This document shows positions 2,378-36,817 of a stretch of 64,000 nt of DNA, one piece after another. This DNA is from Patescibacteria group bacterium. GTDB taxonomy: Bacteria > Patescibacteriota > Microgenomatia > UBA1400 > PJMF01. Each line of letters starts with the position of its first letter. Position 1 is the first letter of the stretch. Below the pieces are notes generated by a model that was not told the DNA's origin, searched no databases, and was given only the letters and a program-made list of their open reading frames with translations. Made by a program: the position numbers and the translations under genes. The stretch is taken from the NCBI GenBank assembly GCA_039934415.1, contig JBDTME010000001.1, forward strand, positions 338,785-402,784, given 5' to 3'.

Positions 2378-4030
2378 TTGTTCTCCCTGCCTGAGTTCTT
2401 TATGATCAGTGTAATGCGTAAAATCTACAGTTTTTTGCTCCATCATGAGGTCATCATCCTCTTACTCGCTTTTCTGATTTTGTTGCGAATTCCTAATCTC
2501 TTCGAGCCTTACTGGTATGGTGATGAAGGGATTTACCTCACAGTCGGAGCAGCAATGCGACAAGGATTACACTTGTATGCACAAACACTTGACCACAAGA
2601 CACCACTGATTTACTACCTTGCAATGGTACCTTCTCAGTTCTGGTTTCGGATGTTATTAATGGCCTGGATGTTAGTGACGACAACTTTTTTCTATTTACT
2701 CACAAAGAACCTCAAATTTCGCAAAGCTCAACAATATATCTCGACTTTTTTCTTCATCATCTTCACAACTTTGCCATGGTTGGAAGGAAATATTCCCAAT
2801 GGGGAACTATTTGTAATGGGGTTTATCATGGTTGGTGCGTGGGTCTTTTCACGAACTCAGTTTTTCCAGCTTAACCTTAAAGAAGAAATTGTCCCTATTA
2901 AGTCTGTCATCAGCTCTCAACAAGCAGTCGCCATCGCGATCAGCGGCTTCTTTTTCTCACTAGCAATCTTGACCAAAGTGCCAGCACTTTTTGATGTCGT
3001 TCCTTTTTACATGGTGGGCTATTTCACGCTTGTTGATCACTTTTCAATTAAGCGCTCTCGAAAAGTTTTTTTCTCAATTCTCGGGCTGTGGGAAATGCTG
3101 AGTATCTCCATAGTGACACCACTCGTGCTAAGTTTGGCTTACTATACCCTCAGAGGAACACTGCACGACTACATCGATATCGGCATTTTATACAACTTTA
3201 GATATGCAGGCACTTGGGCGTTACCAGCCTTACCTTTTGGGTTGGGAATTCTACTCACAATGAAAGGTAAGTTAGCAATTGTCGCTCTAATCGTATTCCT
3301 GTTATCAGTTTTGAGTAAAAAAGTTTCATCCAAATCTCAGTTCATTATCTCTTGGGCAATCATGTCATTGTTTGGAGCTTTGTTATCCTCCAGACCGTAC
3401 CCTCACTACTTACTCCAAGTCGTTCCGGCTTTTGCGCTACTGTTCGGTGCTCTCCTTCAAAAAATTAAGTCCAACACAGAGAGAGTCTTATTAATCATTC
3501 CTTTTGTATTACTCATTTTAGCAATAGTCACAATTCAGTTCGGGTTCTACAGCACAAGTAAATACTATTTAAACTTTATGCGTTACCTCACAGGTCGCAT
3601 CGATCGACAAGAATATAACCAGCGATTTGATTCTTTGATGAGCGATAACTATCAGGCTGCCGCGACCCTCAAAATGGATGATCAACCTCGAATTTTCATT
3701 TGGGGTACAAACCCCACTTTGTATGCATTATCAAAGAAAATTCCTGTTGGTCGCTTCATTACAGCGTTCCATATTGCTGATTTTCCGGGTGCTTTTGATG
3801 AGACGTATCGAGATTTAACCCAATATCATCCTGAATTTATCGTAGTCATGAAATCTGAAACGATTAAGTTTCCAGAATTCTTCACCTATCTGCACCTCAA
3901 CTATTTACCGTATAAAGATCTTGATCACATGACTATTTATAAAAGTACTGATCTTTTGGAAAAAGATGTCAACTTTTTTTCAGACAATCCCAGTTCACCT
4001 TCTGCAGAATTGAATGCAACAGCTGAATAG
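2378..4030 (+). CDS. polytopic membrane glycosyltransferase, GT-C fold (ArnT/PMT/GT39-GT83-like)
   Basis: 550 aa with about 12 hydrophobic helices. The N-terminal loop 'PNLFEPYWYGDEGIY' resembles the first periplasmic loop of GT-C polyprenyl-phosphate-sugar-dependent transferases. Start codon uncertain. Confidence 0.55.
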   Translation: MFSLPEFFMISVMRKIYSFLLHHEVIILLLAFLILLRIPNLFEPYWYGDEGIYLTVGAAMRQGLHLYAQTLDHKTPLIYYLAMVPSQFWFRMLLMAWMLVTTTFFYLLTKNLKFRKAQQYISTFFFIIFTTLPWLEGNIPNGELFVMGFIMVGAWVFSRTQFFQLNLKEEIVPIKSVISSQQAVAIAISGFFFSLAILTKVPALFDVVPFYMVGYFTLVDHFSIKRSRKVFFSILGLWEMLSISIVTPLVLSLAYYTLRGTLHDYIDIGILYNFRYAGTWALPALPFGLGILLTMKGKLAIVALIVFLLSVLSKKVSSKSQFIISWAIMSLFGALLSSRPYPHYLLQVVPAFALLFGALLQKIKSNTERVLLIIPFVLLILAIVTIQFGFYSTSKYYLNFMRYLTGRIDRQEYNQRFDSLMSDNYQAAATLKMDDQPRIFIWGTNPTLYALSKKIPVGRFITAFHIADFPGAFDETYRDLTQYHPEFIVVMKSETIKFPEFFTYLHLNYLPYKDLDHMTIYKSTDLLEKDVNFFSDNPSSPSAELNATAE

Positions 4031-4044
4031 CATATAATTTCCCC

Positions 4045-4413
4045 ATGTCTGTCTCTTTTACTTTCCGTCATCGACGCTCTTTGTTGGCTTTACCCCAAGA
4101 AATGAAACTGCCAACTTTGTTTTCGTTACTGATGGCGTCGATTAGTGCCTTTTTATCGATCATAGTGTATCCTTCGCTGCAACCAATCATTCCACTTTTC
4201 TACACGCTCCCGCAGCTTGACCAACAACTCGCTCGAAAAGAGTTTATGTTTGTTTTGCCCATCATCTCTATTAGCGTTTGTATTGTGAATCTAGTTTTTG
4301 GCAAAATCTTGTCCAAAATTGATTTTTTGATGATGCAGTTGTTGGCATGGCTTACAGTGTTTCTCGAATTCTTACTATTATTCGCATTAGTACGTATCAT
4401 TCTCATCATTTAA
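4045..4413 (+). CDS. small polytopic membrane protein, unknown function
   Basis: 122 aa with three hydrophobic segments. Sits between the GT-C and MraY/WecA-like genes, 4 nt before the next gene. Confidence 0.4.
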   Translation: MSVSFTFRHRRSLLALPQEMKLPTLFSLLMASISAFLSIIVYPSLQPIIPLFYTLPQLDQQLARKEFMFVLPIISISVCIVNLVFGKILSKIDFLMMQLLAWLTVFLEFLLLFALVRIILII

Positions 4414-4416
4414 TCT

Positions 4417-5499
4417 ATGATCATTCCTGCCTTCTTGGTCTCACTCTTCATTGCAGCGATTGTAGCCCCTCTCATTATTCGACTCTATACGTCTAGAAAG
4501 TGGATTGACGATCCCGCTAAGCAACACCACGTTAAAATAACTCATCAATCACCTGTTCCCCGTGGAGGTGGTCTCGTCATTTTAGTGGCAGTTCTCCTCA
4601 GCTGTTTGCTTTTTTTAAATCTGAATTCGGAAATATTCTGGATTTTATTAGGTACAACAATTTTAGCGGCGATGGGGACGCTAGACGACATTAAAAATTT
4701 AAATCCCTATCTTCGGTTTGTAGTTGGACTACTGGTTGCAGGTTTTATTGTGTTTGCTGGTATAAAGATTGAGTACATCACTCACCCATTTCAGACTGGC
4801 GTCATCTACATTGATCATCCTTCGTTTATCATCAATGGGGTACTTTTCTCGTTTAATTTGCCATTCTTGTCTACAATCCTAACTGTGCTCTGGATTGTCT
4901 GGAATATGAACATAGTGAATTGGTCTAAAGGCATCGATGGTCAACTGCCAGGCGTAGTTGGCATTGCGTCTATCTTTATCGGCATCCTAGCAATTCGTTT
5001 TTCAGCAGACCCAGCTCAACAAAATGTAATTCTTCTCGCATTTATCGTAGCTGGCGCTTATCTAGGACTTTTGATCTGGAACGCCTACCCGCAAAAAATC
5101 ATGCCAGGGTACGGGGCAGGTTCGCTAGGTGGATATTTCCTTGCTATCTTAGCTATCCTGTCAGGTGCTAAGTTAGCCACGTCGTTATTAGTACTTGCTT
5201 TACCAACAGCTGATGCCATATTCACCATCACAAGGCGACTACTTCGCAAGAAATCGCCGTTTTGGGGAGATCGCGGACATCTCCACCATAAATTGATGGA
5301 TGTGTTAGGATGGTCTAAGAGAACAACAGCTTTCTTTTATTGGATGGTGACAGCGCTGATGGGCTTTATAGCGCTCCAATTGAAGCCAGAACAAAAATTG
5401 TTTACAATTGTTGTAGTAAGCGCACTAGTATTTGGATTTTTGATATGGGCAAAACTTTTTATTACCTCCTCAAAACAGCACGACCAAGACAGTGGATAA
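4417..5499 (+). CDS. polyprenyl-phosphate phospho-sugar transferase, MraY/WecA (GT4) family
   Basis: 360 aa, about 10 TM helices. Family motifs 'PRGGGL', 'GTLDDIKN', 'NMNIVNWSKGIDGQLPG' (N.N..DG.DG) and 'GDRGHLHHKL'. Cannot tell MraY from a WecA-like initiating transferase; the Asp of the 'GD.GS' motif appears replaced ('GYGAGS'). Confidence 0.7.
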   Translation: MIIPAFLVSLFIAAIVAPLIIRLYTSRKWIDDPAKQHHVKITHQSPVPRGGGLVILVAVLLSCLLFLNLNSEIFWILLGTTILAAMGTLDDIKNLNPYLRFVVGLLVAGFIVFAGIKIEYITHPFQTGVIYIDHPSFIINGVLFSFNLPFLSTILTVLWIVWNMNIVNWSKGIDGQLPGVVGIASIFIGILAIRFSADPAQQNVILLAFIVAGAYLGLLIWNAYPQKIMPGYGAGSLGGYFLAILAILSGAKLATSLLVLALPTADAIFTITRRLLRKKSPFWGDRGHLHHKLMDVLGWSKRTTAFFYWMVTALMGFIALQLKPEQKLFTIVVVSALVFGFLIWAKLFITSSKQHDQDSG

Positions 5500-24636: not shown

Positions 24637-24965
24637 AACTTTCGATTGATAACACCACTTCATCAGTAATCAGGCTTTGGCTTGACACAGATAGTAAGGA
24701 AATTCCTTATGTGTCTCCTCGTGACCAGGATTTATTAAAAGATATCAACCTTTTTTTGCAAGAAAAAGGCAAAAAGCTACAAGATTTAACTGAAATTCAT
24801 GTCGCTACTGGACCAGGTGGATTTACGTCTCTACGAACGAGTATTGCCATTGCCCAAGCTCTTGCTTTTGGACTCCAAATTCCTATTAATGGTCAACCTC
24901 CAGGTACTAGTATTGAGGCACTCTATGGGCAGGAACCTAATATTTCGAAGCCGAGTAATAAATAA
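24633..24965 (+). CDS. tsaB: tRNA t6A biosynthesis protein TsaB (YeaZ), minimal N-terminal-domain-only form
   Basis: 'MKLSIDNTTSSVIRLWL' and 'IHVATGPGGFTSLRTSIAIAQALAFGLQIP' match the TsaB N-domain. Only 110 aa. ATGA overlap with tsaE. Confidence 0.6.
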   Translation: MKLSIDNTTSSVIRLWLDTDSKEIPYVSPRDQDLLKDINLFLQEKGKKLQDLTEIHVATGPGGFTSLRTSIAIAQALAFGLQIPINGQPPGTSIEALYGQEPNISKPSNK

Positions 24966-25074
24966 TCAGCACCCACTTGCAATCACTTGAACAACTCGTT
25001 AAAGTAATACTAATTTAAAAAACTGCCAATCATCCGAGTAAATTCCAATTTTACTGGATCCGCTGTTAAGAAAG

Positions 25075-25356
25075 GTGCTCATGACAAAATCCGATCTGAT
25101 CAAAGTTGTCGCGAAACGCGCAAACTTGACAAAAAAAGCCGCTTCCGATTCTATTGAAACGTTGTTTGACGAAGTCAATCGTAGCCTAGCTAAAGGTAAT
25201 AAAGTGGTCATCTCAGGATTTGGCACGTTCTATCTTAGTCAGGTAAAGGATAAAGAAGTGGTACCGTTCGGTAATGAATCAAAGCGTCAGACTGTCAAAA
25301 AACATAAAGTTGTTAACTTCCGTGTAGGAAAACCTCTCAAGAAAACAGTGTGGTAG
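25075..25356 (+). CDS. hup: DNA-binding protein HU
   Basis: 'KSDLIKVVAKRANLTKKAASDSIETLFDEV..KGNKVVISGFGTFYLSQVKDKE..NFRVGKPLKK'. Probable start ATG 25081. Confidence 0.85.
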   Translation: MLMTKSDLIKVVAKRANLTKKAASDSIETLFDEVNRSLAKGNKVVISGFGTFYLSQVKDKEVVPFGNESKRQTVKKHKVVNFRVGKPLKKTVW

Positions 25357-25374
25357 GCGCTGTATAATTGCTAA

Positions 25375-26172
25375 GTGTTGAAGACTCTCTCTTTTTTCAA
25401 ATATAAGTTGTTGCGTTCTCTGCAATTTCGCTGGGAAGTTTGTTTGTGGATTTGCCTTGACATGATTCCCTTTGGCGTAATGTTTCTTGTTTTGCGCTCA
25501 ATGTATCAGAATCGCTCAGTTATCCACTCCTACACATCAGGCCAAATGATTTTTTACTATTTTATGGTCGTGTTGATTAGTGGGATGAGTTCAACACATT
25601 TTGAAGGGTGGCGAATTGAGGAAATAAGAAGAGGACAGATAGATGTCTATTTACTGCGTCCGTTCTCATATTTAAAAGAAATCTTATTGAATGATTTAGC
25701 CGGTAAACTATTATATATACTTCTTTTTACCCCAATATATATCGGTTTCTACTTCTTAGCTCAATCTATTCTGCCTTTTACACTCCCGACCTTCACTGCA
25801 ACGACCTTATTGCTTTTTATTTTCTTCATCATTTTTGCTTATGTTGTGGAAATGTGCATTGGGATATCGATCGTTCTACTGGGTTTTTGGTTTGAAGGTT
25901 CACAAGGACTCGAACATTTTAAATGGATTTCGATCACGCTGTTGAGTGGCTCAATGATCCCACTGGAGTTCTTACCACCTTGGCTCAAAAACATTACTGC
26001 TCGGTTACCTTTTCAATATATGTATGCTTTCCCTATCAATCTCATTCAAGGTAGGGCAACTTTTTCTCTCTCAGATTTTGCTATTATCCTAATAAGTTGT
26101 ATAGTTCTATTTGGACTCGTTACACTCCTCTGGAAAAAAGCACTCTACACTTATACGTCGAGCGGTGGGTAG
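25375..26172 (+). CDS. ABC-2 family transporter permease (paralog of the permeases at 33410, 35221, 36020)
   Basis: Six hydrophobic helices. C-terminal 'YTYTSSGG' motif shared with 'KKYSSAGS', 'KDYSAAGQ' and 'KQYSSASS' of the downstream paralogs. Confidence 0.5.
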   Translation: MLKTLSFFKYKLLRSLQFRWEVCLWICLDMIPFGVMFLVLRSMYQNRSVIHSYTSGQMIFYYFMVVLISGMSSTHFEGWRIEEIRRGQIDVYLLRPFSYLKEILLNDLAGKLLYILLFTPIYIGFYFLAQSILPFTLPTFTATTLLLFIFFIIFAYVVEMCIGISIVLLGFWFEGSQGLEHFKWISITLLSGSMIPLEFLPPWLKNITARLPFQYMYAFPINLIQGRATFSLSDFAIILISCIVLFGLVTLLWKKALYTYTSSGG

Positions 26173-26182
26173 AAAGAAAAAT

Positions 26183-26566
26183 ATGATTGGTTTCGTTAAA
26201 AATATTGAACAGCTTACACTTGCTAATGAATACTTTCGGCAGGTCCTGTATACAGGACAACACGCCCAAGTAGTCGTGATGTCATTAAAGCCAAAAGAAG
26301 ATATTGGCCTAGAAGTACATGAGATTGTTGATCAATTTCTGAGAATCGAATCTGGCGAAGGTAAAGTGATCATAGATGGTGAGGAACATGTAGTCAAAGA
26401 TGGTTCTGCAATCGTTGTTCCTGCTGGGACAAAACATAACTTAGTTAACACGTCTGCAGACCAACCAATGAAACTCTACACAGTCTACTCACCACCTCAC
26501 CACAAAGATGGCACTATTCATAAAACGAAGAAAGATGCTGAGGCAGATTCAGCAGATCATTTGTAA
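26183..26566 (+). CDS. cupin domain protein
   Basis: 'EVHEIVDQFLRIESGEGKVIIDGEEHVVKDGSAIVVPAGTKHNLVN' is a cupin two-motif core. Start set at ATG 26183. Confidence 0.6.
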   Translation: MIGFVKNIEQLTLANEYFRQVLYTGQHAQVVVMSLKPKEDIGLEVHEIVDQFLRIESGEGKVIIDGEEHVVKDGSAIVVPAGTKHNLVNTSADQPMKLYTVYSPPHHKDGTIHKTKKDAEADSADHL

Positions 26567-26763
26567 GGCTACTGAATAGTTTTGATTACGGTCGTTCAAT
26601 GATCACTTCTGCTGTTGCGATGTGGGGACTTGATGTAATCACGTTCATTATTTGTTCAGCAACGTCTTTTGGTTGTTTAATATTTAGGTGATCTAGTAGA
26701 CACTCCTATATTGTTACGATATTATACTCGACAATCTATCATTAATATTCCAAATTACTTTAT

Positions 26764-28224
26764 ATGTCGTCAAAAGAAAACCCCAGAATCCGGTTAGAAC
26801 GCAATGAAGATGGAAAGTTGCAGGTCGTTGGGAAGCGATTAGAGAATACCAAAGCATTTGCTGCAGCTTTTTTGCCATTTATAGAAGAAATTGGTAACAT
26901 CCTGACGAACGAATACCCAGATGATAATCGCGTAGCAATGAAGCTGCTACAAATCATGCAGTTAGATGGAGATTATACCATCGGTGAAGCTGCAGCTGCA
27001 GCATTGAGTGATCCTGACGCTAAAAGAGCTGAGATGCCTCGAGCTATGCAGGAAACATTAGGTAAAGGTATTCTGTGGTACGAATCTTTCGGTCCAGAAA
27101 ACGATCTTAGGCTTTTAGTACGTAAACTTTTACTTCTAAAGCAGGGTGGCGGAGCAGCTCGTAAGAATGTTGAACAACTGGTTGGCAATGCCAAAAAAAT
27201 TATCGATGAAATGAAAGAATCTGGGACACATGCAGACGTTGATATTGTGTGGACAAACGCACGGCTTGCAAATCTTAATCTCCTTTTCGCTGATGGGCAG
27301 TTTACACCAGAGGAAATGCGCCAACTTTTTGATCGTGCAGAATGGGGATTTGATCACCTGCTTCAAACACAACTCTGGCACAGCGTCCTTTCTAAAGTTC
27401 CCGGCATGGGTGCTCGGATTCGTTTTCCAGGCAAGAAAAAGATGCAACATATTGTGAAAGGAACACTTAAAAAAATGACAAGTTCCTATGACATTGCCAA
27501 AGTACGTGAACTGATGCAAGACAATGATCCCCGTCAAACTGACATTCCGTTCTTACTACTACTTGCAGAAGGTTTGCGAGGAAAATTATCTGAGCACGCA
27601 AAAAAAAACTTACCGTTACATCATCGTGACGTCATTGAACACACAACCGGAAATATTCTTCAAACGCTCTTTGCAGCGACAGAGACTTCATTTGCTGAAA
27701 TTAAACGCATGATGATCAAACTGCAGGATCCAAAATTATTTGCACAACTAAAAGCGGAAGCTCTAGCTGCGTTACCCAACGGATTAGCCTCAATTACTCC
27801 AGAGACACTCATGAGAGGCGATCTTTTTCCCAAATTAGTTGCTGAAATTCATGACAGTTTTCGTAATCCGCCAACTCCACTTGATCAACGAGTGAATGTT
27901 GATCCGGAGACCGGCGAGGAGTCTACAACATATATTGGGTTACAAGCCATGACTGAGAATGCCTATCGTCAACAGGTGTACACAACATTCTCCCAACTTG
28001 TTAGAGGTGAGTGGTTTGCTAATGTCAATAAACTTTCAACACCAGACAAAAAATACAGTAATCCTCGAGATTGTCCAGGAGCAACTTGGGCAATTACTGA
28101 GATCATGTGCACTATACTAGCTATTTTGTTAGAGACAAATGGAGTGAGATTGGCCAACAAGCCAGTGGAATTTAAAGGCGTTACTAGCACTCCTCGCAAT
28201 GTGAATGTCCAATTTATTTCCTAA
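26764..28224 (+). CDS. hypothetical protein, 486 aa, no recognisable domain
   Basis: Long, soluble, helix-rich ORF. Visibly higher GC than neighbouring genes. No signal peptide and no catalytic motif I can name. Confidence 0.45.
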   Translation: MSSKENPRIRLERNEDGKLQVVGKRLENTKAFAAAFLPFIEEIGNILTNEYPDDNRVAMKLLQIMQLDGDYTIGEAAAAALSDPDAKRAEMPRAMQETLGKGILWYESFGPENDLRLLVRKLLLLKQGGGAARKNVEQLVGNAKKIIDEMKESGTHADVDIVWTNARLANLNLLFADGQFTPEEMRQLFDRAEWGFDHLLQTQLWHSVLSKVPGMGARIRFPGKKKMQHIVKGTLKKMTSSYDIAKVRELMQDNDPRQTDIPFLLLLAEGLRGKLSEHAKKNLPLHHRDVIEHTTGNILQTLFAATETSFAEIKRMMIKLQDPKLFAQLKAEALAALPNGLASITPETLMRGDLFPKLVAEIHDSFRNPPTPLDQRVNVDPETGEESTTYIGLQAMTENAYRQQVYTTFSQLVRGEWFANVNKLSTPDKKYSNPRDCPGATWAITEIMCTILAILLETNGVRLANKPVEFKGVTSTPRNVNVQFIS

Positions 28225-28298
28225 CGATGTAATAATTCAGATTTTGGATGTGCTTGGTGATGGAAAAGTAGAGTAAGAAAGAGGTTTATTCAGCGTCT

Positions 28299-29240
28299 TC
28301 AAATCGATAAACTTCTCTTTAAAAGATTAGAGAAATTATCGAACGAAATTCTTTGAACAACGTCTTTGTCTAGTTTCTTCAAAAGATAATTCTGAAAATC
28401 TTTTATAACAGTCATATTCTGAGCGTTGTTTACAAATGGATACTCAGGTAAAGGGAAGATATCGGAGCAAAGAGCAACCCTATCATCTCCCCATTTAGAC
28501 GCAATATAGTCTAGATGTTTATACCAGTCATCAAAAGTACCGTTACCACCAACTTCATCTTTAGTTGGCAGCAAACAAACTAAACCATCGTGATCCACAA
28601 TCATTTGAATCTGATCGTCAGAAAGATTATGGGGTAAATCAACAATTGCTTTGGCATTTGCATGAGTATTAACAATAATTCCATCAAAACTTTTATCCAA
28701 ATCAACAAACGAACGATCACTTAAATGAGCAGTATCAACTATCAGGCGATGGTTGCTCATCTTTTTTAGTAAAGCTTTCCCTCTATTAGTAATTCCAAAA
28801 TCATTTTTCGATCCGTTTCCTGTTGCATAGTCGTTTGCAAATTCCCAGGTCAACCCAAAGGAACGAACGCCGATATCGTAAAAAGTTTCAAAATCATTTT
28901 CATCTCGAAGACACTCCAGACCTTCAATTGAATAAAAGAACCCGACTTTATCAGAAGGAAGATCTTCTACTTCAGTCCTACTCTTAATCTGTATTAATTC
29001 ATTAGTTTTAGACAAGAGTTCTTTATAAAATTCGAAGTAATTCATAACACCATCAAACATATTTGTTTGAATCAGGTTCGGATCCATAAAAAGTGTAAAA
29101 CCAACAATCCTTATTTCAGTCTCCTTCAGCATTGAAAGAGTCACTGGAATATCTTTTCGTTGGCTAAAAAAATCGTCTATGGGAATTTTAAATTCGTCAT
29201 ATATGGAGGCTATGTCAATGTGTGGATCAATAAGTTCCAT
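28299..29240 (-). CDS. membrane dipeptidase (peptidase M19 / renal dipeptidase)-like metallohydrolase
   Basis: Matches M19 landmarks: 'DPHIDI' (H.D metal site), 'SIEGLE' (bridging Glu), 'GVRSFGLTWEF', 'IVDTAHLSDRSF', 'IVNTHANAKAI', 'VALCSDIF'. Confidence 0.6.
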   Translation of the reverse strand: MELIDPHIDIASIYDEFKIPIDDFFSQRKDIPVTLSMLKETEIRIVGFTLFMDPNLIQTNMFDGVMNYFEFYKELLSKTNELIQIKSRTEVEDLPSDKVGFFYSIEGLECLRDENDFETFYDIGVRSFGLTWEFANDYATGNGSKNDFGITNRGKALLKKMSNHRLIVDTAHLSDRSFVDLDKSFDGIIVNTHANAKAIVDLPHNLSDDQIQMIVDHDGLVCLLPTKDEVGGNGTFDDWYKHLDYIASKWGDDRVALCSDIFPLPEYPFVNNAQNMTVIKDFQNYLLKKLDKDVVQRISFDNFSNLLKRSLSI

Positions 29241-29295
29241 ATTTTTAGTTACTAATTGTAAGTTATTAGCAACTTTATAGTTATTTCCATCACCT

Positions 29296-29400
29296 TCTGA
29301 GCTGGTAACCGTAATTGGCTCGGACCTACAAGACTTGGTTACTCCAGGTTTAATTTTACAACTTTAGGCTCTTAAAAACCATCTCAAGAGTGTTGATTTC
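29296..29400 (+). repeat. island repeat copy R1 (degenerate; frame interrupted by TAG)
   Basis: 'GAGCTGGTAACCGTAATTGGCTCGGACCTACAAGACTTGGTTACTCCAGGTTTAATTTTACAACTTTAG...' aligns with R2-R4. Lies 59 nt from the start of the M19-like gene. Confidence 0.7.
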
Positions 29401-29456
29401 TGTTTGTTTCAGGAGGTTTTTGGCAAAAAAAGGTAACAAATGTTATACTTCCGATA

Positions 29457-30014
29457 ATGAAAGAAAATCCATTTCTAAAAGGGTCTGTAGCCAAGGATCA
29501 AGATGGTGTTGAGGTCAACGCAGAGCTAGAAGCTGTTGTAAAAAGAATTGCATCTTTACTTCCTCACGATGTTCTCTTTGAACTGTTTTCAAGTAGCCCA
29601 AATGAAACAGGTGGTAGATCAGAATTCCCATATTGTCGTGTCGACTCGCAATTGATTGTTAGTAGAAATTGGGTTTATATATTTGAACAGTACGGAGCAA
29701 AAGATCAAGAAGATTTTAAGAGAATCTATGAAGCAGCTGCAACCTCAGCTTTCAAGGCGATTGTATGGGTAGAAGTTGGATTCCAAAATCTAGATAACTT
29801 AGCAGTAAGTCCTGCTTCTAGAAATTGGACAAGCGGAGTAGGACATTTTGTGAATGACCAACAAAGAGCGGAAGGAATAAGAACCGCAGGTAGAGGAATG
29901 TATAAACAAATGTTGAACAGGTTTGTCCAATTTAGAGACGCTAACCAAGTTGATAGTGATATTTTTAATAGGTACAACGTCGAAGGTTTGCTAGATAAAT
30001 TCAGGTCTGGCTAA
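29457..30014 (+). CDS. hypothetical protein
   Basis: 185 aa, soluble, no motif recognised. The only plus-strand ORF inside the island. Preceded by repeat copy R1 and followed by R2. Confidence 0.4.
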   Translation: MKENPFLKGSVAKDQDGVEVNAELEAVVKRIASLLPHDVLFELFSSSPNETGGRSEFPYCRVDSQLIVSRNWVYIFEQYGAKDQEDFKRIYEAAATSAFKAIVWVEVGFQNLDNLAVSPASRNWTSGVGHFVNDQQRAEGIRTAGRGMYKQMLNRFVQFRDANQVDSDIFNRYNVEGLLDKFRSG

Positions 30015-30157
30015 AAGGGATAGTATTTGTAAAATTATTCTACCGATCGTCTCCTAATCTTCCAGGCCAGGCTAACACTAAAAAACGAAAAACCTGGTTA
30101 GAACCCCGCTGAAAGCGGATTTCAAGGCTAATTTTGATGAAGTTGCAAAACCATTAC

Positions 30158-30277
30158 CGTATGGAGCTGGTGACCGTACTTCGCTCGGACCTGCGAGATC
30201 TTATAACTACAGATTTAATTCTTCAACTTAACACGCTAAAGAGACATATAAGTATCAAAAGTTTTACTCATTGTTGA
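30158..30277 (+). repeat. island repeat copy R2; contains the 38-aa ORF 30161..30277 (MELVTVLRSDLRDLITTDLILQLNTLKRHISIKSFTHC)
   Basis: About 80-85% identical to R3 and R4. ATG at 30161, TGA at 30275-30277. Overlaps the 3' end of the minus gene 30264..30968. Confidence 0.75.
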
Positions 30278-30968
30278 GCCTAAACGAAGAAATAATCTCT
30301 TGTATATCTGCATAATAAGGCTTGGTAGTCTCTAAAGGTGTCCCACCTACTGAGATAAAATATCCTTTTCTCTCGAAAACAAAAACAGAGTTTGATGATG
30401 ATATCAATTCATAACCTTGAATATTATTAATAGTTTTAGGCATAGCTTTATACCCGTGCTGATCAACAGAATATTTTATATATTCTTGAAAACTCGAATA
30501 ATTAGGATTTGGCTTGCTTACCCCAATCGTAAAATAAGCTCCACTAAGTAATTCACCATGGTCTAAAGATGTACTGAGGGCTGTTATATCGCAAATATTT
30601 CTATCTAACCAATTATTGTCTTGTGGTTTGGTGCAGTTTAATTTCCAATCTTTTGGATATTGAAAACTAAATTGATATTCTTCATCTGAATACGTGAGTA
30701 CATTAAGGTTAGAATTCGTTGTAGGTGTTGGAGATGTTTGAGTAGCAACTGACTCAATGGGTTTTTCATCTTTTAGGTAGGTGTTGTTAGAATTCAGTGA
30801 TTGTGTACCCAGATAGTATCCTCCTAAGCCAAAAATAATTGCACAAACTAAAACAGTTAACAAAACTGGTACTATCAATCTTGATTTTGTTTGCGAAGAA
30901 GCAGGCGATTGAATAGTTGGAGTTGGATTTATAGAGACATCTGGGTTAGTTATTTGGGGATTTTCCAT
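30264..30968 (-). CDS. membrane-anchored hypothetical protein with extracytoplasmic domain
   Basis: P/S/T-rich N-terminus, single TM 'LIVPVLLTVLVCAIIFGLGGYYL', about 170-aa C-terminal domain with 2-3 Cys. Confidence 0.45.
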   Translation of the reverse strand: MENPQITNPDVSINPTPTIQSPASSQTKSRLIVPVLLTVLVCAIIFGLGGYYLGTQSLNSNNTYLKDEKPIESVATQTSPTPTTNSNLNVLTYSDEEYQFSFQYPKDWKLNCTKPQDNNWLDRNICDITALSTSLDHGELLSGAYFTIGVSKPNPNYSSFQEYIKYSVDQHGYKAMPKTINNIQGYELISSSNSVFVFERKGYFISVGGTPLETTKPYYADIQEIISSFRLNNE

Positions 30969-31034
30969 AGTAAATAAATACTAACACTTTTTGATGACAT
31001 TGTTTTATGTAACTTTCTGTACATTTCTGTCACT

Positions 31035-31154
31035 TTGGAGCTGGTAACCGTACTTCGCTCGAACCTACGAGACTTAGTTACTCCAGATTTAATTTTACAA
31101 CTTAATGCTCTAAAGAGCCATATAAGTGTTGAGAGTTTTAGAAAAAATTGCTGA
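31035..31154 (+). repeat. island repeat copy R3; contains the 39-codon ORF (TTG)LELVTVLRSNLRDLVTPDLILQLNALKSHISVESFRKNC
   Basis: Core 'GGAGCTGGTAACCGTACTTCGCTCGAACCTACGAGACTTAGTTACTCCAGATTTAATTTTACAACTTAATGCTCTAAAGAGCCATATAAGTGTTGAGAGTTTT'. TGA at 31152-31154, 4 nt from the kinase gene stop. Confidence 0.75.
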
Positions 31155-31157
31155 TAT

Positions 31158-32132
31158 TTACATCTCCAAAGCTTTAGTAATAAGCTCCATACCTTCTTCA
31201 ATTTCTTTTTCATCAAATGGAAATTCTTGCGTTTCTGTGGCCCATAGCTCCCAAAGACCTTGAGATAGCGCATATCTTTGTAATCTAGTCTTTTCATCTG
31301 CGGACATAACTTCTTGTCCATAGCCTGCTAAAAAAGCATCTTGATCAAATTCATCACCAAGTTGGAAATTGATAGGAAATTTTTGGAAATCATAGTAAGG
31401 GTCTCCAAGTGTGGACATTTCAAAATCAAATACTCCCACGATTTCGCCATTTCTCACTTGAAAATTATTACAGCTAAAATCTCCATGAATTAAAGCGACT
31501 TTTTTTGAAAGATTGCCTAAAGATGCATATTCTTTCAATACAACTTCAATACCATAAACAATCTTTTCTGAAAGTAACCGCTTTTTCTTCACCAGGTCTA
31601 GGTATTCAGCAAACTCTGATTTTATCGTTTTATTCCAATCTTCCATATTTCCAAATAATTCACTCCTTAATGATATTTTGCTAATATCAGTGGAGTGAAT
31701 TTTCTTTGCAATCTCACCTAACTGAAATGCCAACTTGTATTGAACTTCTTTACTTCCTTTTTTAAAGGCTTCAGTAAGTGTCTCCCCTTCGATATAGCTA
31801 ATAAGAAGATAGTCTTCTTTTATTATTTCTCCACTAAAATCATGAGCAATGCATTTTGGAGTTGGAATATGAGATTCAGAAAGTAACGAATATAACAGCG
31901 CCTCTTTTTTAAATTTTTGTTTATTTTCTTTTGTCTGCTTTGTATTTACTCGAAGGATATATTGTTTGTTTACAATAAAAACTGGATTAATTAAGCCCGT
32001 TTTTATTTCGTCAAACGTGAAGAGTTGACCCAGTTTATATTTCTGAAGAATTTTGCTAATGGTTTCTTCCGAAATGACGAAGGTATCTTTCATGTATGTA
32101 ACATTATGTACGTTCCTGTTTACTTCTATCAT
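31158..32132 (-). CDS. phosphotransferase enzyme family protein (APH / choline-kinase-like small-molecule kinase)
   Basis: Brenner motif 'LIHGDFSCNNFQV' (HGD....N) and metal-binding 'VGVFDFEMSTLGDPYYDF' (DFE...D). Confidence 0.7.
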   Translation of the reverse strand: MIEVNRNVHNVTYMKDTFVISEETISKILQKYKLGQLFTFDEIKTGLINPVFIVNKQYILRVNTKQTKENKQKFKKEALLYSLLSESHIPTPKCIAHDFSGEIIKEDYLLISYIEGETLTEAFKKGSKEVQYKLAFQLGEIAKKIHSTDISKISLRSELFGNMEDWNKTIKSEFAEYLDLVKKKRLLSEKIVYGIEVVLKEYASLGNLSKKVALIHGDFSCNNFQVRNGEIVGVFDFEMSTLGDPYYDFQKFPINFQLGDEFDQDAFLAGYGQEVMSADEKTRLQRYALSQGLWELWATETQEFPFDEKEIEEGMELITKALEM

Positions 32133-32133
32133 T

Positions 32134-32277
32134 TTGGGAGCTGATAACCGTACTTGGCTCGAACCTACGAGACTTGATTACTCCAGGTTTAATTCTACAA
32201 CTTAACGCTCTAAAGAGCCATATAAGTATCGAGAGTTTTGCAGATATGAGCTGGGTTGATGATAGAAGTGCCGCTTA
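32134..32277 (+). repeat. island repeat copy R4 (same frame open through to TAG 32275-32277)
   Basis: Starts 2-6 nt from the kinase gene start codon at 32132. Overlaps the 3' end of the minus gene 32202..32843. Confidence 0.75.
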
Positions 32278-32843
32278 GAAGTTTTTTCTGTAGAAGAGAA
32301 GTTTATGAAAGAGCTAAGTAAAAGTAGGGCTCCAAGGGTTAACATAATAAGAGCTCCTAAAAAGTATTTATCTAGACCAAAGGCTTTAGGGGAATTAATA
32401 CTGAAATTTAATACTTTCTTGTCATCTTCATTTAACCTTTTGAATAATTCTTTCTTTGTAATCTGTAAAGTTAGAAACTCTTTGTATAAAGACAACCTAG
32501 GACTAAGTAGAGAATGCCACTTTTCGCCCATTTCTTGATAAGAATTTCCCTTGGACTTATTATAAAAAAATAAAATGGACATACCAAAAACGATCAAAGT
32601 TAAAAGCATTAATTCACCAAGAAAGAATAGAGGGCGATTTACAACATTTCCTAAAGCAGAAAATCCAAACCCAGCAATAACGCCCACGCTAGTCAAAAAA
32701 GTATAGAACAGCCCTACAGATTGTTCGTCTAGCTTACTCAATTTTTCTTCATAGGAACCCATCAGATCTATATATGTCTTATGAAACTGATTAGACTCAG
32801 CTTGAATCTCTTTAAATTCTTTTTCTGTGAAGTCCAAAGTCAT
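32202..32843 (-). CDS. membrane protein, unknown function
   Basis: 213 aa, three hydrophobic helices. Last about 13 codons overlap repeat copy R4. Confidence 0.4.
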   Translation of the reverse strand: MTLDFTEKEFKEIQAESNQFHKTYIDLMGSYEEKLSKLDEQSVGLFYTFLTSVGVIAGFGFSALGNVVNRPLFFLGELMLLTLIVFGMSILFFYNKSKGNSYQEMGEKWHSLLSPRLSLYKEFLTLQITKKELFKRLNEDDKKVLNFSINSPKAFGLDKYFLGALIMLTLGALLLLSSFINFSSTEKTSKRHFYHQPSSYLQNSRYLYGSLER

Positions 32844-32864
32844 GGGGCAATTATAACATCTGGG

Positions 32865-33071
32865 CTAAAGTTCTTTAGACAAACCGTTTTTGCTTTCTAC
32901 AGTTAGTTTCTTTTTTTGAACGGCCTTTTTTATCACATACTCAAACAACGAAAGCAAAGCGAATCCTTGTTCAAAAGCTTGTTCGTCTGTCAACCTTATT
33001 CCGTATTCTTCAAAAGCAATCTTTTTAAACTCTTCTAGTTCATCCTTGGTAAATGTAACTTCTTCTTCCAT
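32865..33071 (-). CDS. small acidic hypothetical protein
   Basis: 68 aa, E/K-rich. 21 nt upstream of the 32202..32843 gene, so probably co-transcribed. Confidence 0.35.
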   Translation of the reverse strand: MEEEVTFTKDELEEFKKIAFEEYGIRLTDEQAFEQGFALLSLFEYVIKKAVQKKKLTVESKNGLSKEL

Positions 33072-33170
33072 AGGTTCTATTCTCCTTAAGGGTATTTAGT
33101 ATTCCAGGCTAAAGGAAAATACTTCTATTTAAGGAATAGAACTTGAGAAAATGCTGTCTTCTTGAGAAGT

Positions 33171-33350
33171 TTGGAATCACGACAAAATAAGTCCGGTTAT
33201 GAGCGGGTAACGGGAATTGGACCTTTTCTTTTTTTTCTGTATGAATTGCTTACTCCTCATTTAATTTTACAATTGTATATGTTGAGGGATCATTTGAGTA
33301 TTCGTAGTTTTAGAGATGAATGTTAAGTTTTTTGAATGATAACGATCTAT
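33171..33350 (+). repeat. island repeat copy R5 (diverged, in-frame indels; frame open to TAA 33345-33347)
   Basis: 'GAGCGGGTAACGGGAATTGG...TTACTCCTCATTTAATTTTACAATTGTATATGTTGAGGGATCATTTGAGTATTCGTAGTTTTAGAGATGAATGTTAA'. Encodes '..LTPHLILQLYMLRDHLSIRSFRDEC'. Confidence 0.6.
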
Positions 33351-33409
33351 AATCACTTTATCTGAAAAAACTCAAGAAATATCTTACTATCTTTTGGCAT
33401 TTTCGCGTC

Positions 33410-34159
33410 ATGAATTTGATGGTGATGTTGGAGTATCGCGCTGATTTTTTGTTTTGGGGTTTTGTGTCGGTGATGTGGACTGCATTTAATTTTTTCTTTA
33501 CCGGCATTATCGTTGGCAGCTCCGGTTTTCTTGCAGGATGGAATACAGATGAAGTATTCGTATTACTATCTATTTTTACTATCTACGATGCATTTACCTG
33601 GTCATTCTTTTACTTCAATATGCAACGGTACATGAATAAAGTGTTTACCGGTGAGCTCGATATGTTCCTGGTCAAGCCAGTTGATCCTCAGTTCATGTTG
33701 TCAGTGGAACACAACAGCTATAACAATTTATTCCGCCTATTCATTGGGATCGGCATGCTGATCATTTCGCTGATTCATTTAAACAAACCCATTACCCTCT
33801 TTTCATTCCTGATCTTCGTCATCATGTTCGTACTCGGATTTATACTCACCTACTCAGTTTGGTTCATGTTCGCCACGATCTCTTTCTGGGTTGATCGCCT
33901 CGATAATTTAAACGACGTCATGCCATCTCTCCGCCGCTTGTCTCAACTCCCCCGCAGTGTCTACAGCGGTGTTTCCTCCTTTTTATTCTGCATGGTCCTA
34001 CCGGTTGTTCTCGTCACGTCAATTCCTGCAGAAGCACTAGTCCACAAAATATCGCCACTCTGGAATTTATACTATACAGTCTTCACACTCGTCATTTTTT
34101 GGGTGAGTCGCCGATTCTTTTATTATTCTATAAAAAAATATAGTAGTGCCGGAAGTTAA
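33410..34159 (+). CDS. ABC-2 family transporter permease
   Basis: Six TM helices. Family with the C-terminal 'KKYSSAGS' motif. First gene of a four-gene transporter operon. Confidence 0.6.
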   Translation: MNLMVMLEYRADFLFWGFVSVMWTAFNFFFTGIIVGSSGFLAGWNTDEVFVLLSIFTIYDAFTWSFFYFNMQRYMNKVFTGELDMFLVKPVDPQFMLSVEHNSYNNLFRLFIGIGMLIISLIHLNKPITLFSFLIFVIMFVLGFILTYSVWFMFATISFWVDRLDNLNDVMPSLRRLSQLPRSVYSGVSSFLFCMVLPVVLVTSIPAEALVHKISPLWNLYYTVFTLVIFWVSRRFFYYSIKKYSSAGS

Positions 34160-34215
34160 AACTTCTCGTCATGTTACAGTGCAATCTCCAAGTGCTTAAG
34201 GTATAATTTGATTCC

Positions 34216-35202
34216 ATGTCACTCATTTCCGTCAAAAATTTAAAAAAGTATTACAAAGTCTATAAAAAAGAGCCTGGTTTGTGGGGTTCGATCAAGTCAT
34301 TATGGCATCGAGAGTATGAAGAGGTTAAAGCCGTAGATGACGTTAGTTTCGAGATTGAACAAGGCGAAATAGTTGGTTTCATCGGTCAAAATGGGGCAGG
34401 CAAAACGACAACATTGAAAGTATTGTCTGGTCTGCTCTTTCCAACAGGAGGTAGTGTCTCAGTACTCGGTTTCAATCCCTGGGAGCGAAAACCTGAGTTT
34501 CAAAAGCAATTTGCATTAGTAATGGGACAGAAAAACCAGCTGTGGTGGGATTTACCTGCCATGGAGAGTTTCCTTCTTAACAAAGCAATTTATGAAGTGC
34601 CAGATGCTCAGTTCAAAAAAACGTTAGACAAGTTAGTGACCTTACTTGATGTCAAAGATGTTCTGAATATTCAAGTCCGCAAGCTGTCCCTCGGTCAACG
34701 CATGAAGTGCGAACTCATTGCTGCCTTGCTGCACAGTCCAAAAGTGTTATTTCTCGACGAGCCAACGATCGGGCTCGACGTCGTCATGCAGAAAGTACTG
34801 CGCGATTTTATTCGTGACTATAACAAAGAGTTCGGCGCTACCATTATCCTAACCAGTCACTACATGGATGACGTCAAAGAACTCTGTAAACGCGCCATCA
34901 TCATCGATCACGGTCACAAAATCTTCGATGGAAAACTGCAAGACATCATCGATACCTATGCTCGCAACAAAATCATCTCTGTTGTCTTGAGTGAAAAAGT
35001 CAGTCGGGAAAAACTGGAAAAATTTGGCGAACTCAAATCATACGAAGATCCTCAAGCAACCTTACTCGTTCCTCGTAAAAAAGCCGCCGAAGTTGCTGGC
35101 CGGATGATCGCAGAACTACCTGTAGAAGACGTCAATATTGAAGAACCACCGATTGAAGCGATTATCAGAGAAGTTTTTCAAACTGGTAAAACAACTGGCT
35201 AG
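34216..35202 (+). CDS. ABC transporter ATP-binding protein with C-terminal accessory domain
   Basis: Walker A 'GQNGAGKTTT', signature 'LSLGQRMKCELIAALL', Walker B 'LFLDEPTIGLD', H-loop 'LTSHYMDD', plus about 90 extra C-terminal residues. Confidence 0.85.
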   Translation: MSLISVKNLKKYYKVYKKEPGLWGSIKSLWHREYEEVKAVDDVSFEIEQGEIVGFIGQNGAGKTTTLKVLSGLLFPTGGSVSVLGFNPWERKPEFQKQFALVMGQKNQLWWDLPAMESFLLNKAIYEVPDAQFKKTLDKLVTLLDVKDVLNIQVRKLSLGQRMKCELIAALLHSPKVLFLDEPTIGLDVVMQKVLRDFIRDYNKEFGATIILTSHYMDDVKELCKRAIIIDHGHKIFDGKLQDIIDTYARNKIISVVLSEKVSREKLEKFGELKSYEDPQATLLVPRKKAAEVAGRMIAELPVEDVNIEEPPIEAIIREVFQTGKTTG

Positions 35203-35220: not shown

Positions 35221-36012
35221 ATGCAAAAATATTGGCAACTTTTCCTACTTTCTTGGCAAAACGGCTTGGTTTATCGGACCAGTTTACTCATGTGGCGATT
35301 ACGGCAATTTCTGTCTACGGTGATGGCCCTCACAGTCTGGAGCGTGCTATTCAATTCTTCCTCATCTTTATTTGGCTACGATCGAACACAAATGACTACC
35401 TATATTTTTCTGGTGGGCATCTTACAGAGTCTCATTCTAGCCACTGGTTTAAATGGATTATCCAATCAAGTTTACTCCGGCAGCTTTAGTTTTGACTTAC
35501 TCAAACCGATTAATATTTATGTCTATTTATTCGTCCAGGACATGGCCGATAAAGCAAAAAACGTTTTTTTTGTTGTGATCGAGAGTATTATTTTATTCTT
35601 ACTATTTAAACCAAGTATCTTTTTCCCATCAATCGAAACAGCCATCATTTTCTGCATCTGGGTGCTGGGAGCTGTACTCTTGCTGTTTTTTATCCAACTC
35701 ATTTTTGGTTCATTCGGTTTCTACAGCCCAGAGACTTGGGGTCCCCGTTTTCTCTTTTTCATGTTCGTTGATTTTACCGCCGGAAAATTGTTTCCATTAG
35801 ATATTTTGCCACCCATAATTAGAACTTTCGTCGGCTTTACTCCTTTTCCTTACTTTTCATTTTGGCAGATTCAACTTTTCTTGGGCAAACTGTCACCAAT
35901 GGAAATTGGCCAACATACTGTTGTACTAAGTATCTGGATCGCAATAGCAGGTTATGTCAGCTTTTCACTTTGGCAAAAAGGTATTAAAGATTACAGTGCG
36001 GCTGGTCAATAA
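35221..36012 (+). CDS. ABC-2 family transporter permease
   Basis: Six TM helices; C-terminal 'KDYSAAGQ'. Confidence 0.6.
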   Translation: MQKYWQLFLLSWQNGLVYRTSLLMWRLRQFLSTVMALTVWSVLFNSSSSLFGYDRTQMTTYIFLVGILQSLILATGLNGLSNQVYSGSFSFDLLKPINIYVYLFVQDMADKAKNVFFVVIESIILFLLFKPSIFFPSIETAIIFCIWVLGAVLLLFFIQLIFGSFGFYSPETWGPRFLFFMFVDFTAGKLFPLDILPPIIRTFVGFTPFPYFSFWQIQLFLGKLSPMEIGQHTVVLSIWIAIAGYVSFSLWQKGIKDYSAAGQ

Positions 36013-36019
36013 GAAATAT

Positions 36020-36817
36020 ATGTTTAAACGATTTAAAGTCTACTCTACAGTCTGGTTTATTATTGCATCCAACGCTGTGCAAGAAACCTTTGTGAATCGT
36101 TGGAGTAATGTTCTATTTTTTTTAGGGAAAGCAATCCGGTTAGGCATGTCCCTAATAGTACTGTTGCTCATCAAACAAGCCACTAAAGGATTTGGTCAGT
36201 ACAGCACAGATGAAATGATTGTTTTCTTTTTAACATACCAGTTGCTCGACATCGTTGGTCAAATTTTTTATCGTGGAGTGTACATGTTTAGCAACATGGT
36301 GCGCAGTGGAGAGTTTGACCTGTTTTTGTCAAAACCAATCAATCCTCTTTTTCGCGCATTAACTGGTCAACCAGACATCAATGATGTGTTTTTTCTCATA
36401 CCAAATCTAATCATCAGCGGTTACATCTTGAGCAAACTGAATATCACTATCACAGTCGGTTCAGCTGTGTTATATGCAGCACTCTTATTGAACAGTTTTC
36501 TGATCGTCACTGCTCTACATATCTTGGTTTTAACAATTGGAGTTATCACTACCGAGGTGGATGGAGTGATCTGGATGTATCGAGATCTGATTCGTCTCGG
36601 TCAATTCCCCGTCTCAGTCTATGCAGAACCATTGCGCTTTGCACTTTTTTTCATCATTCCGATTGGTGTCATGATCACAATTCCAGCTGAAGTATTGTTA
36701 AACACACCAGTCACTTATAGTATTTTCCTGTCAACTCTGATTGGAGTTGGCTCACTTTTTATTAGCTTACGACTTTGGGATTGGGGTATCAAACAATATA
36801 GCAGTGCGAGTAGCTAA
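36020..36817 (+). CDS. ABC-2 family transporter permease
   Basis: Start set at ATG 36020 (MFKRFKVYS); six TM helices; C-terminal 'KQYSSASS'. Confidence 0.55.
   Translation: MFKRFKVYSTVWFIIASNAVQETFVNRWSNVLFFLGKAIRLGMSLIVLLLIKQATKGFGQYSTDEMIVFFLTYQLLDIVGQIFYRGVYMFSNMVRSGEFDLFLSKPINPLFRALTGQPDINDVFFLIPNLIISGYILSKLNITITVGSAVLYAALLLNSFLIVTALHILVLTIGVITTEVDGVIWMYRDLIRLGQFPVSVYAEPLRFALFFIIPIGVMITIPAEVLLNTPVTYSIFLSTLIGVGSLFISLRLWDWGIKQYSSASS

Follow-up and report, generated by a model that had tools for sequence, protein, structure and literature searches.

The window analysed here, 64 kb of contig JBDTME010000001.1 from a Patescibacteria group bacterium, holds an uncharacterised ATP-binding cassette (ABC-2) transporter operon in which two permease genes, called P1 and P2, are separated by an island of accessory genes. 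This insert spans 26173 to about 33342 (~7.2 kb), from the stop codon of P1 to the native upstream region of P2, and its right part is punctuated by five copies of a repeat, R29 to R33, which delimit small gene cassettes. The features of the locus are listed below in order along the forward strand; the P arm, core and P' arm of the repeats are those described in the second section, and all listed open reading frames (ORFs) are present at these coordinates in the ORF map of the window.

25375..26172, plus strand: ABC-2 permease P1, orthologue of permease a of relatives and left flank of the insert (PF06182, E = 1.4e-23, 84 bits)
26183..26566, plus strand: cupin gene, 127 amino acids (aa) from its ATG, part of the insert (Cupin_2, E = 4e-16) and not at the P1/P2 junction of any relative
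26764..28224, plus strand: 486-aa near-ORFan with weak P450-like motifs (2 homologues)
28299..29240, minus strand: M19 dipeptidase-family gene, last cassette of the array (Peptidase_M19, E = 8e-47)
29272..29398, minus strand: repeat R29, with P arm, core ...GTTACCAGCTC (29309->29299) and then P' arm (nhmmer E = 5.5e-31)
29457..30014, plus strand: 185-aa orphan, alone in its cassette and in the opposite orientation to the array (ORF map; no family match)
30147..30267, minus strand: repeat R30 of subfamily B, which starts at the stop codon of the 234-aa gene and ends in ...GCTCCATACGGT, with no P' arm (nhmmer E = 2e-33)
30264..30968, minus strand: 234-aa membrane-anchored protein with weak PsbP-like similarity (PsbP_2, E = 9e-6, just under the cut-off)
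31012..31141, minus strand: repeat R31, with complete P arm, core and P' arm (nhmmer E = 2e-39)
31158..32093, minus strand: APH-family kinase of 311 aa, the one gene of the cassette between R32 and R31 (APH, E = 1.4e-28)
32113..32241, minus strand: repeat R32, whose P' arm carries a promoter-like ATGATA-18-CATAAT (nhmmer E = 2.6e-38; promoter scan)
32202..32843, minus strand: 213-aa membrane protein, the last 13 codons of which enter R32 (no family match)
32865..33071, minus strand: 68-aa acidic two-helix protein (tblastn homologues at 61-67% identity)
33182..33313, minus strand: repeat R33, degenerate, head of the array, ~30 nt from the native P2 upstream region (nhmmer E = 6e-8)
33343..33409, plus strand: native P2 upstream region (homology to L022 and L026 sequence 5' of P2)
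33410..34159, plus strand: ABC-2 permease P2, orthologue of permease b and right flank of the insert (PF06182, E = 4e-45, 155 bits)
34216..35202, plus strand: ABC ATPase (87-94% identical to the ATPases of relatives)
35221-36012, plus strand: permease P3, orthologue of permease e (62-75% identity to e of relatives)
35954-36817, plus strand: permease P4, orthologue of permease f (59-78% identity to f of relatives)

The insert between permeases P1 and P2

The loci of relatives were found by a search with P1, with identities of 55-77%, and the contexts of the orthologues were then compared. At the junction of permeases a and b, nothing is inserted in L027 and L028 (55% identity in P1), where the called start of b lies 39 nt after the stop of a and the TAA stop of a directly abuts an in-frame GTG of the b reading frame. 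The other relatives carry genes at this point, namely one reversed NUDIX gene in L022, one 123-aa gene in L025, three unknown genes in L026, and at least nine accessory genes in L024, including a hydrolase, a P450, a DNA glycosylase and a dehydrogenase. These inserts are mutually unrelated, and no homologue of any of the window's island proteins was found at the relatives' loci. The genes between P1 and P2 in the window were counted as nine, among them those for the cupin, the 486-aa protein, the M19 hydrolase, the 185-aa and 234-aa proteins, the APH kinase, and the 213-aa and 68-aa proteins. The comparison supports that the whole stretch is horizontally acquired accessory DNA inserted between permeases a and b, and the junction itself appears, from the genomes compared, to be a recurrent landing place for foreign genes in this lineage. 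As such, the island is an ordinary genomic island.

An earlier note, made from the letters of this DNA without database searches, had proposed an island of about 6.8 kb between paralogous permeases and had advised a comparison with related genomes. Synteny bears out the insertion, given that b directly follows a in L027 and L028 and that no relative shares island genes at the junction, and only its start has to be moved, from 26567 to 26173. In the same way, the order described at that time, a cupin gene followed by an orientation-switched block, is real, but the cupin belongs to the insert and not to its flank. Independent Logan contigs from two sequencing runs match positions 24718-26243 and 32633-34307 at 100%, and one of them, L038, confirms the junction between R33 and the P2 side, so that both outer junctions and the adjacency of P2 and the ATPase are not assembly artefacts. 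Direct repeats pairing the two flanks of the whole island, which the earlier note had also suggested looking for, were not found. The 64 kb contain no tRNA genes. Among the window ORFs that were scanned, a set in which syntenic and ribosomal ORFs were not each included, none has a Pfam domain of an integrase or transposase, in agreement with the absence of such genes previously noticed by eye.

The composition of the block is not uniform. The 61 core genes outside the island have a mean guanine-plus-cytosine (GC) content of 0.412 (standard deviation 0.023, minimum 0.365), and five island genes fall below that minimum, at z about -3: M19 (0.344), 234-aa (0.338), kinase (0.330), 213-aa (0.336) and 68-aa (0.338). 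The cupin (0.401), 486-aa (0.424) and 185-aa (0.385) genes are within the host range. Seen by region, the stretch 28299-33313 has a GC of 0.347 versus 0.409 for the rest of the window, with five of its six genes poorer in GC than any of the 61 core genes, and the left part (26173-28298), at 0.408, is not atypical in composition. The island is thus a mosaic of a host-like left part, with the cupin and 486-aa genes, and an AT-rich right part made of repeat-bounded units, a structure that these values support and that had been suspected from an uneven GC content judged by eye. In this regard, the kinase and 234-aa genes were rightly picked out as AT-rich; the 486-aa gene does stand above its island neighbours, but its GC is ordinary for this genome.

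The repeats and their association with tRNA-Gly

The elements first pointed out as R1-R5 are real repeats, present as five co-oriented copies of 125-135 nt (up to ~135 nt including the P' arm) which nhmmer recovers with E-values from 2e-39 to 6e-8. No further copies were found elsewhere in the 64 kb, and shuffled sequences gave 0 matches. Within the array they are spaced by 0.9-1.1 kb, and they typically start at, or a few bases past, the stop codon of a co-oriented gene. A P arm of ~75 nt, which begins at this stop codon, is followed by a core (...GGTTCGAG..ACC(A/C)GCTCC(A)) resembling the T-loop and acceptor 3' strand of tRNA-Gly, and then by a P' arm of ~35 nt with the consensus TAAAGTGACAGAAAT..GTTACATAAAG and the form GTGACA-N18-CATAAa, which looks promoter-like and may act as such. 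A subfamily lacking the P' arm and ending in the GCTCCATACGGT variant (R30 at 30147-30170, and copies in L013 and L014) has an opposite-strand gene next to it in 3/3 cases, which fits a P' arm that would serve the downstream co-oriented gene.

Copies within the window are 66-91% identical to each other. R31 is 95% identical to copies of L012 and L006 versus 78-91% to its neighbours in the window, which points to separate origins and not to local amplification. Pattern scans revealed the same element in one Daviesbacteria metagenome-assembled genome (MAG), one Levyibacteriota MAG and about ten metagenome contigs. Other identities considered for the repeats were set aside: as a promoter/terminator module, scans showed no enrichment over shuffled sequences, only the P' arm being promoter-like; as a coding repeat, the sole plus-strand open frame changes mostly non-synonymously between copies, as judged by eye; and as sequences of phage origin, two repeat patterns had no match in IMG/VR.

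The clearest hint about the nature of the repeats comes from other genomes. Eight independent loci from Microgenomates and metagenomes (L003, L006, L016, L017, L019, L030-32, L033-34 and L035) have enough sequence upstream of the first repeat to be informative, and in all eight there is an intact, co-oriented tRNA-Gly 0.3-1.2 kb upstream of it; the window itself has no tRNA. Moreover, an alignment of tRNA-Gly genes and repeats (A5) shows that the 3' part of the repeat shares GGTTC...CC(C/A)GCTC(C)A with the T-loop and acceptor 3' strand of the tRNA, and that the arm after the core (TAAAGTGACAGAAAT..GTTACATAAAG) is the same behind tRNA-Gly genes and behind repeats. The repeat at the unit boundary contains, in other words, the 3' end of the target tRNA, and the core of R33, the head copy, is closer to a genuine tRNA-Gly 3' end, matching that of the tRNA-Gly (GCC) of L017 at 22/26 positions. 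Directly after the intact tRNA-Gly (CCC) of L003 there is a second, partial tRNA-Gly 3' end (2650-2710; GTCGAGGGTTCAAGTCCCTTCTCCCGCTCA), which looks like the footprint of an earlier integration.

The segment from the tRNA-Gly to the last repeat is more AT-rich than its flanks in six of the eight loci (GC of 0.35-0.38 vs 0.37-0.51); L006 differs little, and in L003 the relation is reversed. Because of this bias, the AT-rich segments fit a pool of cassettes with a composition of its own.

Two cassettes of the window were found in other contexts. Homologues of the kinase in L030 (81% identity) and L033 (77%) lie directly behind a tRNA-Gly and are followed by a repeat, in unrelated contexts, and the DNA of the kinase cassette (window 32141->31004, L030 9953-11055) is 82.5% identical. 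For the M19 gene, a homologue in L035 with 83% protein identity shows the order tRNA-Gly 3' end, 35-nt arm, M19 gene and repeat, the cassettes (window 29278->28301, L035 58-1033) being 77% identical in DNA. In both instances the DNA homology starts at the core and spans the arm, the gene and the next repeat; upstream of the core, L030 and L035 have a tRNA-Gly and the window has the previous repeat.

A recent event can be seen in two near-identical strains of another species than the window's. Compared with L030, L032 has an insertion of 2418 bp directly after the tRNA-Gly, between flanks with identities of 99.2% and 99.9%. A stretch of ~56 nt of L030, comprising the core and P' arm, matches both ends of the insert, with a repeat at its distal end, which amounts to a presence/absence polymorphism with duplication of the attachment (att) site. 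The two copies of the arm are only ~70% alike by eye, and the shared crossover stretch, GCTC(C)ATAA(A)GTGACA, is short, for which reason site-specific recombination is favoured over a RecA-dependent one. The insert encodes no recognisable recombinase; in the same line, no recombinase Pfam family was found in the called genes of the fetched arrays, in the cargo of the window or in two cassette proteins from other loci.

Origin of the array and rival explanations

Altogether, the reading that we favour, with a probability of roughly 0.75, is that the island was inserted, that its AT-rich part is formed by five recombinase-less cassettes of a tRNA-Gly type with att-like repeats, and that this fragment of an array was relocated to the P1/P2 junction by an event not involving att sites. 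On the minus strand, the five cassettes of the right part (28299-33313) follow one another in tandem; their genes are those for the 68-aa and 213-aa proteins, the kinase, the 234-aa protein, the 185-aa protein (reversed) and the M19 hydrolase. Each cassette follows the layout P' arm, gene or genes, P arm and core, and each repeat would be an attP-like site in which the P arm is the arm of the element and the core imitates the 3' end of tRNA-Gly. The target of a circular cassette carrying P-core-P' would be either a tRNA-Gly gene, at its 3' end, or the core of a cassette already in place, and the recombination would presumably be catalysed by an enzyme encoded elsewhere. Successive integrations would push the older cassettes outward, in a process of tandem accretion, and would yield internal P-core-P' junctions like those of R29, R31 and R32.

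At the head of the window's array, the P arm of R33 abuts host DNA, and at its tail the M19 cassette, which has no repeat, abuts the 3' end of the 486-aa gene; no repeat remnants were found at the tail (28200-28330), in the spacer between the cupin and 486-aa genes or at the end of P1. Most likely, then, a fragment of a tRNA-Gly-type array, from this genome or another, would have moved into the P1/P2 junction, possibly by uptake of a DNA fragment and its illegitimate recombination. The remaining repeats would stay usable for the gain and loss of cassettes.

Several points weigh against this history. The array of the window is not at a tRNA and neither of its ends is an att junction, which is the very reason to propose a relocated fragment, and the array may be a dead relic. 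The sequence shared by tRNA-Gly and the repeat core is short, and RecA-dependent recombination between the longer repeats may account for the shuffling of cassettes within arrays. Neither the window ORFs scanned nor any fetched array yielded a recombinase, and the enzymology described above is one that we infer. The left part, with its cupin and 486-aa genes of host-like GC, has an origin that the model does not explain. Finally, repeats of ~130 nt can mislead assemblers, and the check with independent contigs covers the outer junctions but not the 486-aa/M19 boundary or the order of the cassettes.

Among the alternatives, the one that fares best, though still improbable, takes the repeats as a cis-regulatory or structured RNA (a leader, a 3' untranslated region element or a tRNA-like processing signal) and the island as a set of co-regulated genes. 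The very high conservation across genomes, up to 95%, the fixed position at stop codons, several substitutions that are G-U-compatible on the transcribed strand, the T-loop-like GGTTCGAG motif and the promoter-like P' arm would all be expected of such an element. However, Rfam 15 gave 0 matches at gathering scores over the 64 kb and only chance-level ones at relaxed E-values of up to 10, and folds of the repeats as DNA showed no excess stability over shuffles on either strand (z -0.6 to +1.0). The consensus fold was likewise weak and devoid of compensatory changes, a hand-drawn set of helices did no better than shuffles, and no covariation above controls was seen. Moreover, an RNA element leaves unexplained the tRNA-Gly at the heads of the arrays, the strain polymorphism, and the movement of gene and repeat together. 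A regulatory side-role of the P' arm is compatible with the relocated array that we favour.

Quite unlikely too is a history of differential loss, in which the nine genes would be ancestral between P1 and P2 and would have been lost to varying extents in the relatives. The host-like GC and codon use of the left part agree with it, as does an identity in P1 of only 77% for the nearest of the available relatives. Against this, five relatives share none of the nine genes and carry inserts unrelated to one another, the P1 stop of L027 abuts the P2 reading frame, and the array is compositionally foreign, with cassettes that sit behind tRNA-Gly in other genomes.

We give no better odds to the idea that the repeats are non-autonomous transposons, similar to miniature inverted-repeat transposable elements, scattered independently of the genes over a pre-existing accessory region, as their being short, conserved, multi-copy, intergenic and common to several genomes could suggest. 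In 17 aligned copies, no terminal inverted repeats and no consistent target-site duplication are visible. All copies in an array are co-oriented, the homology between genomes covers the gene and its flanking arms as one unit, and every informative array is anchored at tRNA-Gly.

Least probable of all is an integron-type array without integrase (CALIN) whose repeats would be attC sites for an IntI encoded elsewhere, an identity first suggested by co-oriented repeats every 0.9-1.1 kb that start at or over stop codons, in units with one or two unrelated small genes, and then set aside after the folding and covariation tests above and the link to tRNA-Gly: the repeat ends are not complementary and do not show the R''/R' consensus (RYYYAAC/GTTRRRY) on inspection, no IntI was found, and the arrays have their head at tRNA-Gly (at P2 in the window) with a core that copies the tRNA 3' end, which integrons do not.

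Going one step beyond the relocated array, Microgenomates and related members of the candidate phyla radiation (CPR) could share an undescribed integron-like cassette system, a proposal to which we grant slightly less than even odds. It would consist of recombinase-less units of ~1-2.4 kb with a promoter-like arm and an attP-like core mimicking tRNA-Gly, inserted behind tRNA-Gly and into one another by a recombinase acting in trans; its AT-rich arrays would circulate across genomes with GC of 0.37-0.51, and pieces of them could also seed islands at sites other than tRNAs, of which the window would then be an example.

Known systems, cargo and neighbourhood

The cassette system of the AT-rich half appears to be undescribed in the literature searched, and to be a variant of tRNA-targeted integrative elements. 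Tandem integrative islands directed to tRNA or tmRNA genes are known from the tycheposons of Prochlorococcus (bioRxiv 10.1101/2020.12.28.424599) and the ssrA genomic islands of Dehalococcoides (PMC3146451). As in the arrays described here, integration takes place at the 3' end of a small RNA gene, newcomers push the older elements outward, the arrays are punctuated by partial 3' ends of the RNA gene, and a low-GC, strain-specific cargo is carried by streamlined genomes. In contrast with those islands, the units here are of 0.9-2.4 kb with one to four genes and no integrase or replication module, the site is a conserved P-core-P' of 125-135 nt instead of a partial tRNA of 20-40 nt, and the copy in the window is not beside any tRNA.

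A second point of comparison is offered by the cis-mobilizable elements (CIMEs) and the site-specific accretion described for integrative conjugative and mobilizable elements (ICEs and IMEs; PMC5704250). CIMEs also lack integration and transfer genes, keep their att sites and are found behind a target gene, at its 3' end, in tandem arrangement with further elements. They are regarded, however, as decayed ICEs or IMEs of several kb, whereas for the units described here the lack of a recombinase is the rule across the eight loci. The same small cassettes also recur in different genomes, which fits a dedicated cassette pool better than decay products.

Integron cassettes share with these units the small size of one or two genes, the co-oriented arrays, a site that starts from the stop codon and a recombinase that is not on the cassette. 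They differ in that the repeats here have no attC hairpin, the site being conserved in sequence and not in structure, and in that the head of the array is tRNA-Gly and not attI with intI; the cassettes, moreover, appear to bring a promoter-like arm with them.

CPR bacteria have tiny genomes, in which few mobile elements have been recognised, and how they exchange genes is poorly known. In this regard, the combination of att-type repeats, anchoring at tRNA-Gly, strain polymorphism and recurring cassettes offers a concrete and testable route of gene flow, and the repeat model provides a sequence signature with which CPR metagenomes can be searched for accessory gene pools and for the missing recombinase.

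With respect to the transporter that received the insert, BLASTP equates P1, P2, P3 and P4 with the permeases a, b, e and f of relatives. P1 is 77% identical to a of L022, 61% to that of L025, 56% to that of L026 and about 55-56% to that of L027, and P2 is 60-73% identical to b. The relatives have in common the gene run FtsE/X, M23, LTD, VanZ, TsaE, TsaB, HU, a, b, c, d, ATPase, e, f, S9, L13, L17, RpoA, and the order HU-a-b-c-d-ATPase-e-f-S9 is kept in L025, L026 and L027; four relatives in all retain HU, six permeases with one ATPase, and ribosomal genes in this succession. P1 and P2, the two proteins scanned, match PF06182 above the Pfam gathering cut-off of 22 bits, and for P3 and P4 the family is assigned through their BLASTP orthologues, the permeases e and f, which have precomputed PF06182 matches in the relatives. 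The view of the four permeases as paralogs, originally drawn from their C-termini (...YTYTSSGG in P1, KKYSSAGS in P2, KDYSAAGQ in P3 and KQYSSASS in P4), has been confirmed in this way, and the ATPase is indeed found only in the downstream block (34216-35202).

The locus therefore resembles uncharacterised ABC-2 transporters in which PF06182 permeases accompany a single ATPase, including two alternating permease subtypes (BLASTP E = 2e-10 for P1-P3 and 9e-19 for P2-P4, with P1-P2 not significant). It departs from the three permease pairs per ATPase of the relatives in that one pair has been lost and another is split by 7.2 kb. The gap between P2 and the ATPase (34160-34215) is of only 56 nt in the window, where relatives hold c and d (~260 aa each), and no orthologue of c or d occurs anywhere in the 64 kb, so that the c/d pair has been deleted in the window's lineage.

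The insertion splits the a/b pair without destroying it. P1 and P2 are intact and well conserved, so the pair is probably still functional, though P2, without tight coupling to P1, would have to rely on its own upstream region, in which a TATAAT box, at about 33345 in the window, is shared with L022. An N-terminal extension of P2 (LKKLKKYLTIFWHFRV) is conserved and still in frame 5' of the ATG at 33410 (window 33362-33409); the ancestral start of this extension would correspond to CTG at 33362 in the window, ATG in L026 and TTG in L022, with a GTG three codons further downstream in L027.

An inverted repeat of 22 nt, 86% complementary, pairs the interior of the cupin gene (26359-26380) with the P2 upstream region (33342-33363) and holds ATAAAGTGA, which also begins the P' arm. 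It was judged a chance match and not a boundary signal, because the cupin ORF is intact and the arm on the P2 side is ancestral and shared with L022. Similarly, ATAAGTGCAGAAAT at the P1/P2 junction of L027 resembles the att crossover region, and it was not used, being P2 coding sequence that is not conserved in closer relatives.

Turning to the cargo, Pfam confirms the family calls previously made for the cupin, the M19 hydrolase and the APH kinase, and the 486-, 185-, 213- and 68-aa proteins have no match in Pfam, NCBIfam, PHROGs or PADLOC. The description of this cargo as lineage-unspecific was only partly right: the kinase has many homologues at 70-81% identity and the M19 protein a few at 65-84%, coming from metagenomes and Patescibacteria-type MAGs, and 1.84 billion representative proteins include only 2 homologues of the 486-aa protein, a near-ORFan. 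This protein has the motifs FAATETS, similar to that of an I-helix, and NPRDCPG, similar to that of a Cys-loop, and may belong to a very divergent P450-like family. Cytochromes P450 are its top profile matches in the PDB, at a non-significant E of ~0.9, and hhalign matches the I-helix at E = 0.0019. As an assignment to P450s this was left as a weak lead, the BLASTP comparison with the P450 of L024 being not significant and a single-sequence AlphaFold2 (AF2) model unusable (predicted local distance difference test, pLDDT, of 38).

As originally listed, the kinase ORF included 13 initial codons (32094-32132) that are read-through of R32, the database kinase being of 311 aa. Repeats pose as coding sequence in two more places, a 123-aa ORF at 30950-31321 (minus strand) on R31 and the last 13 codons of the 213-aa ORF (32202-32240, minus strand). 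N-terminal homologues of the 234-aa protein precede repeats in L017 and L008. The 68-aa family adjoins a repeat in three unrelated loci (the window, L006 at 3075-3353 and L011 at 124-366), in different orientations. AF2 models this protein as a helical hairpin with a pLDDT of 84, and a role as an excisionase-like factor was not retained, since the two-helix hairpin has no informative fold or family match.

The neighbourhood seems to be plastic in general, given that relatives hold other lineage-specific inserts nearby: a SMODS (CBASS-like) block of three genes plus LexA between HU and P1 in L026 (6460-9966), a PMT-like gene between permeases e and f, with a transposase-like ORF before S9, in L025 (15415-18618), and a 532-aa ORF before S9 in L027 (15852-17450). 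As for defence functions, PADLOC gave no match for the window proteins beyond a generic kinase similarity. In the Levyibacteriota locus L006, a repeat-bounded unit (3340-5220, minus strand) contains an OLD-family ATPase/nuclease (PADLOC Old, E = 6e-21), which indicates that cassettes of this kind can carry defence genes.

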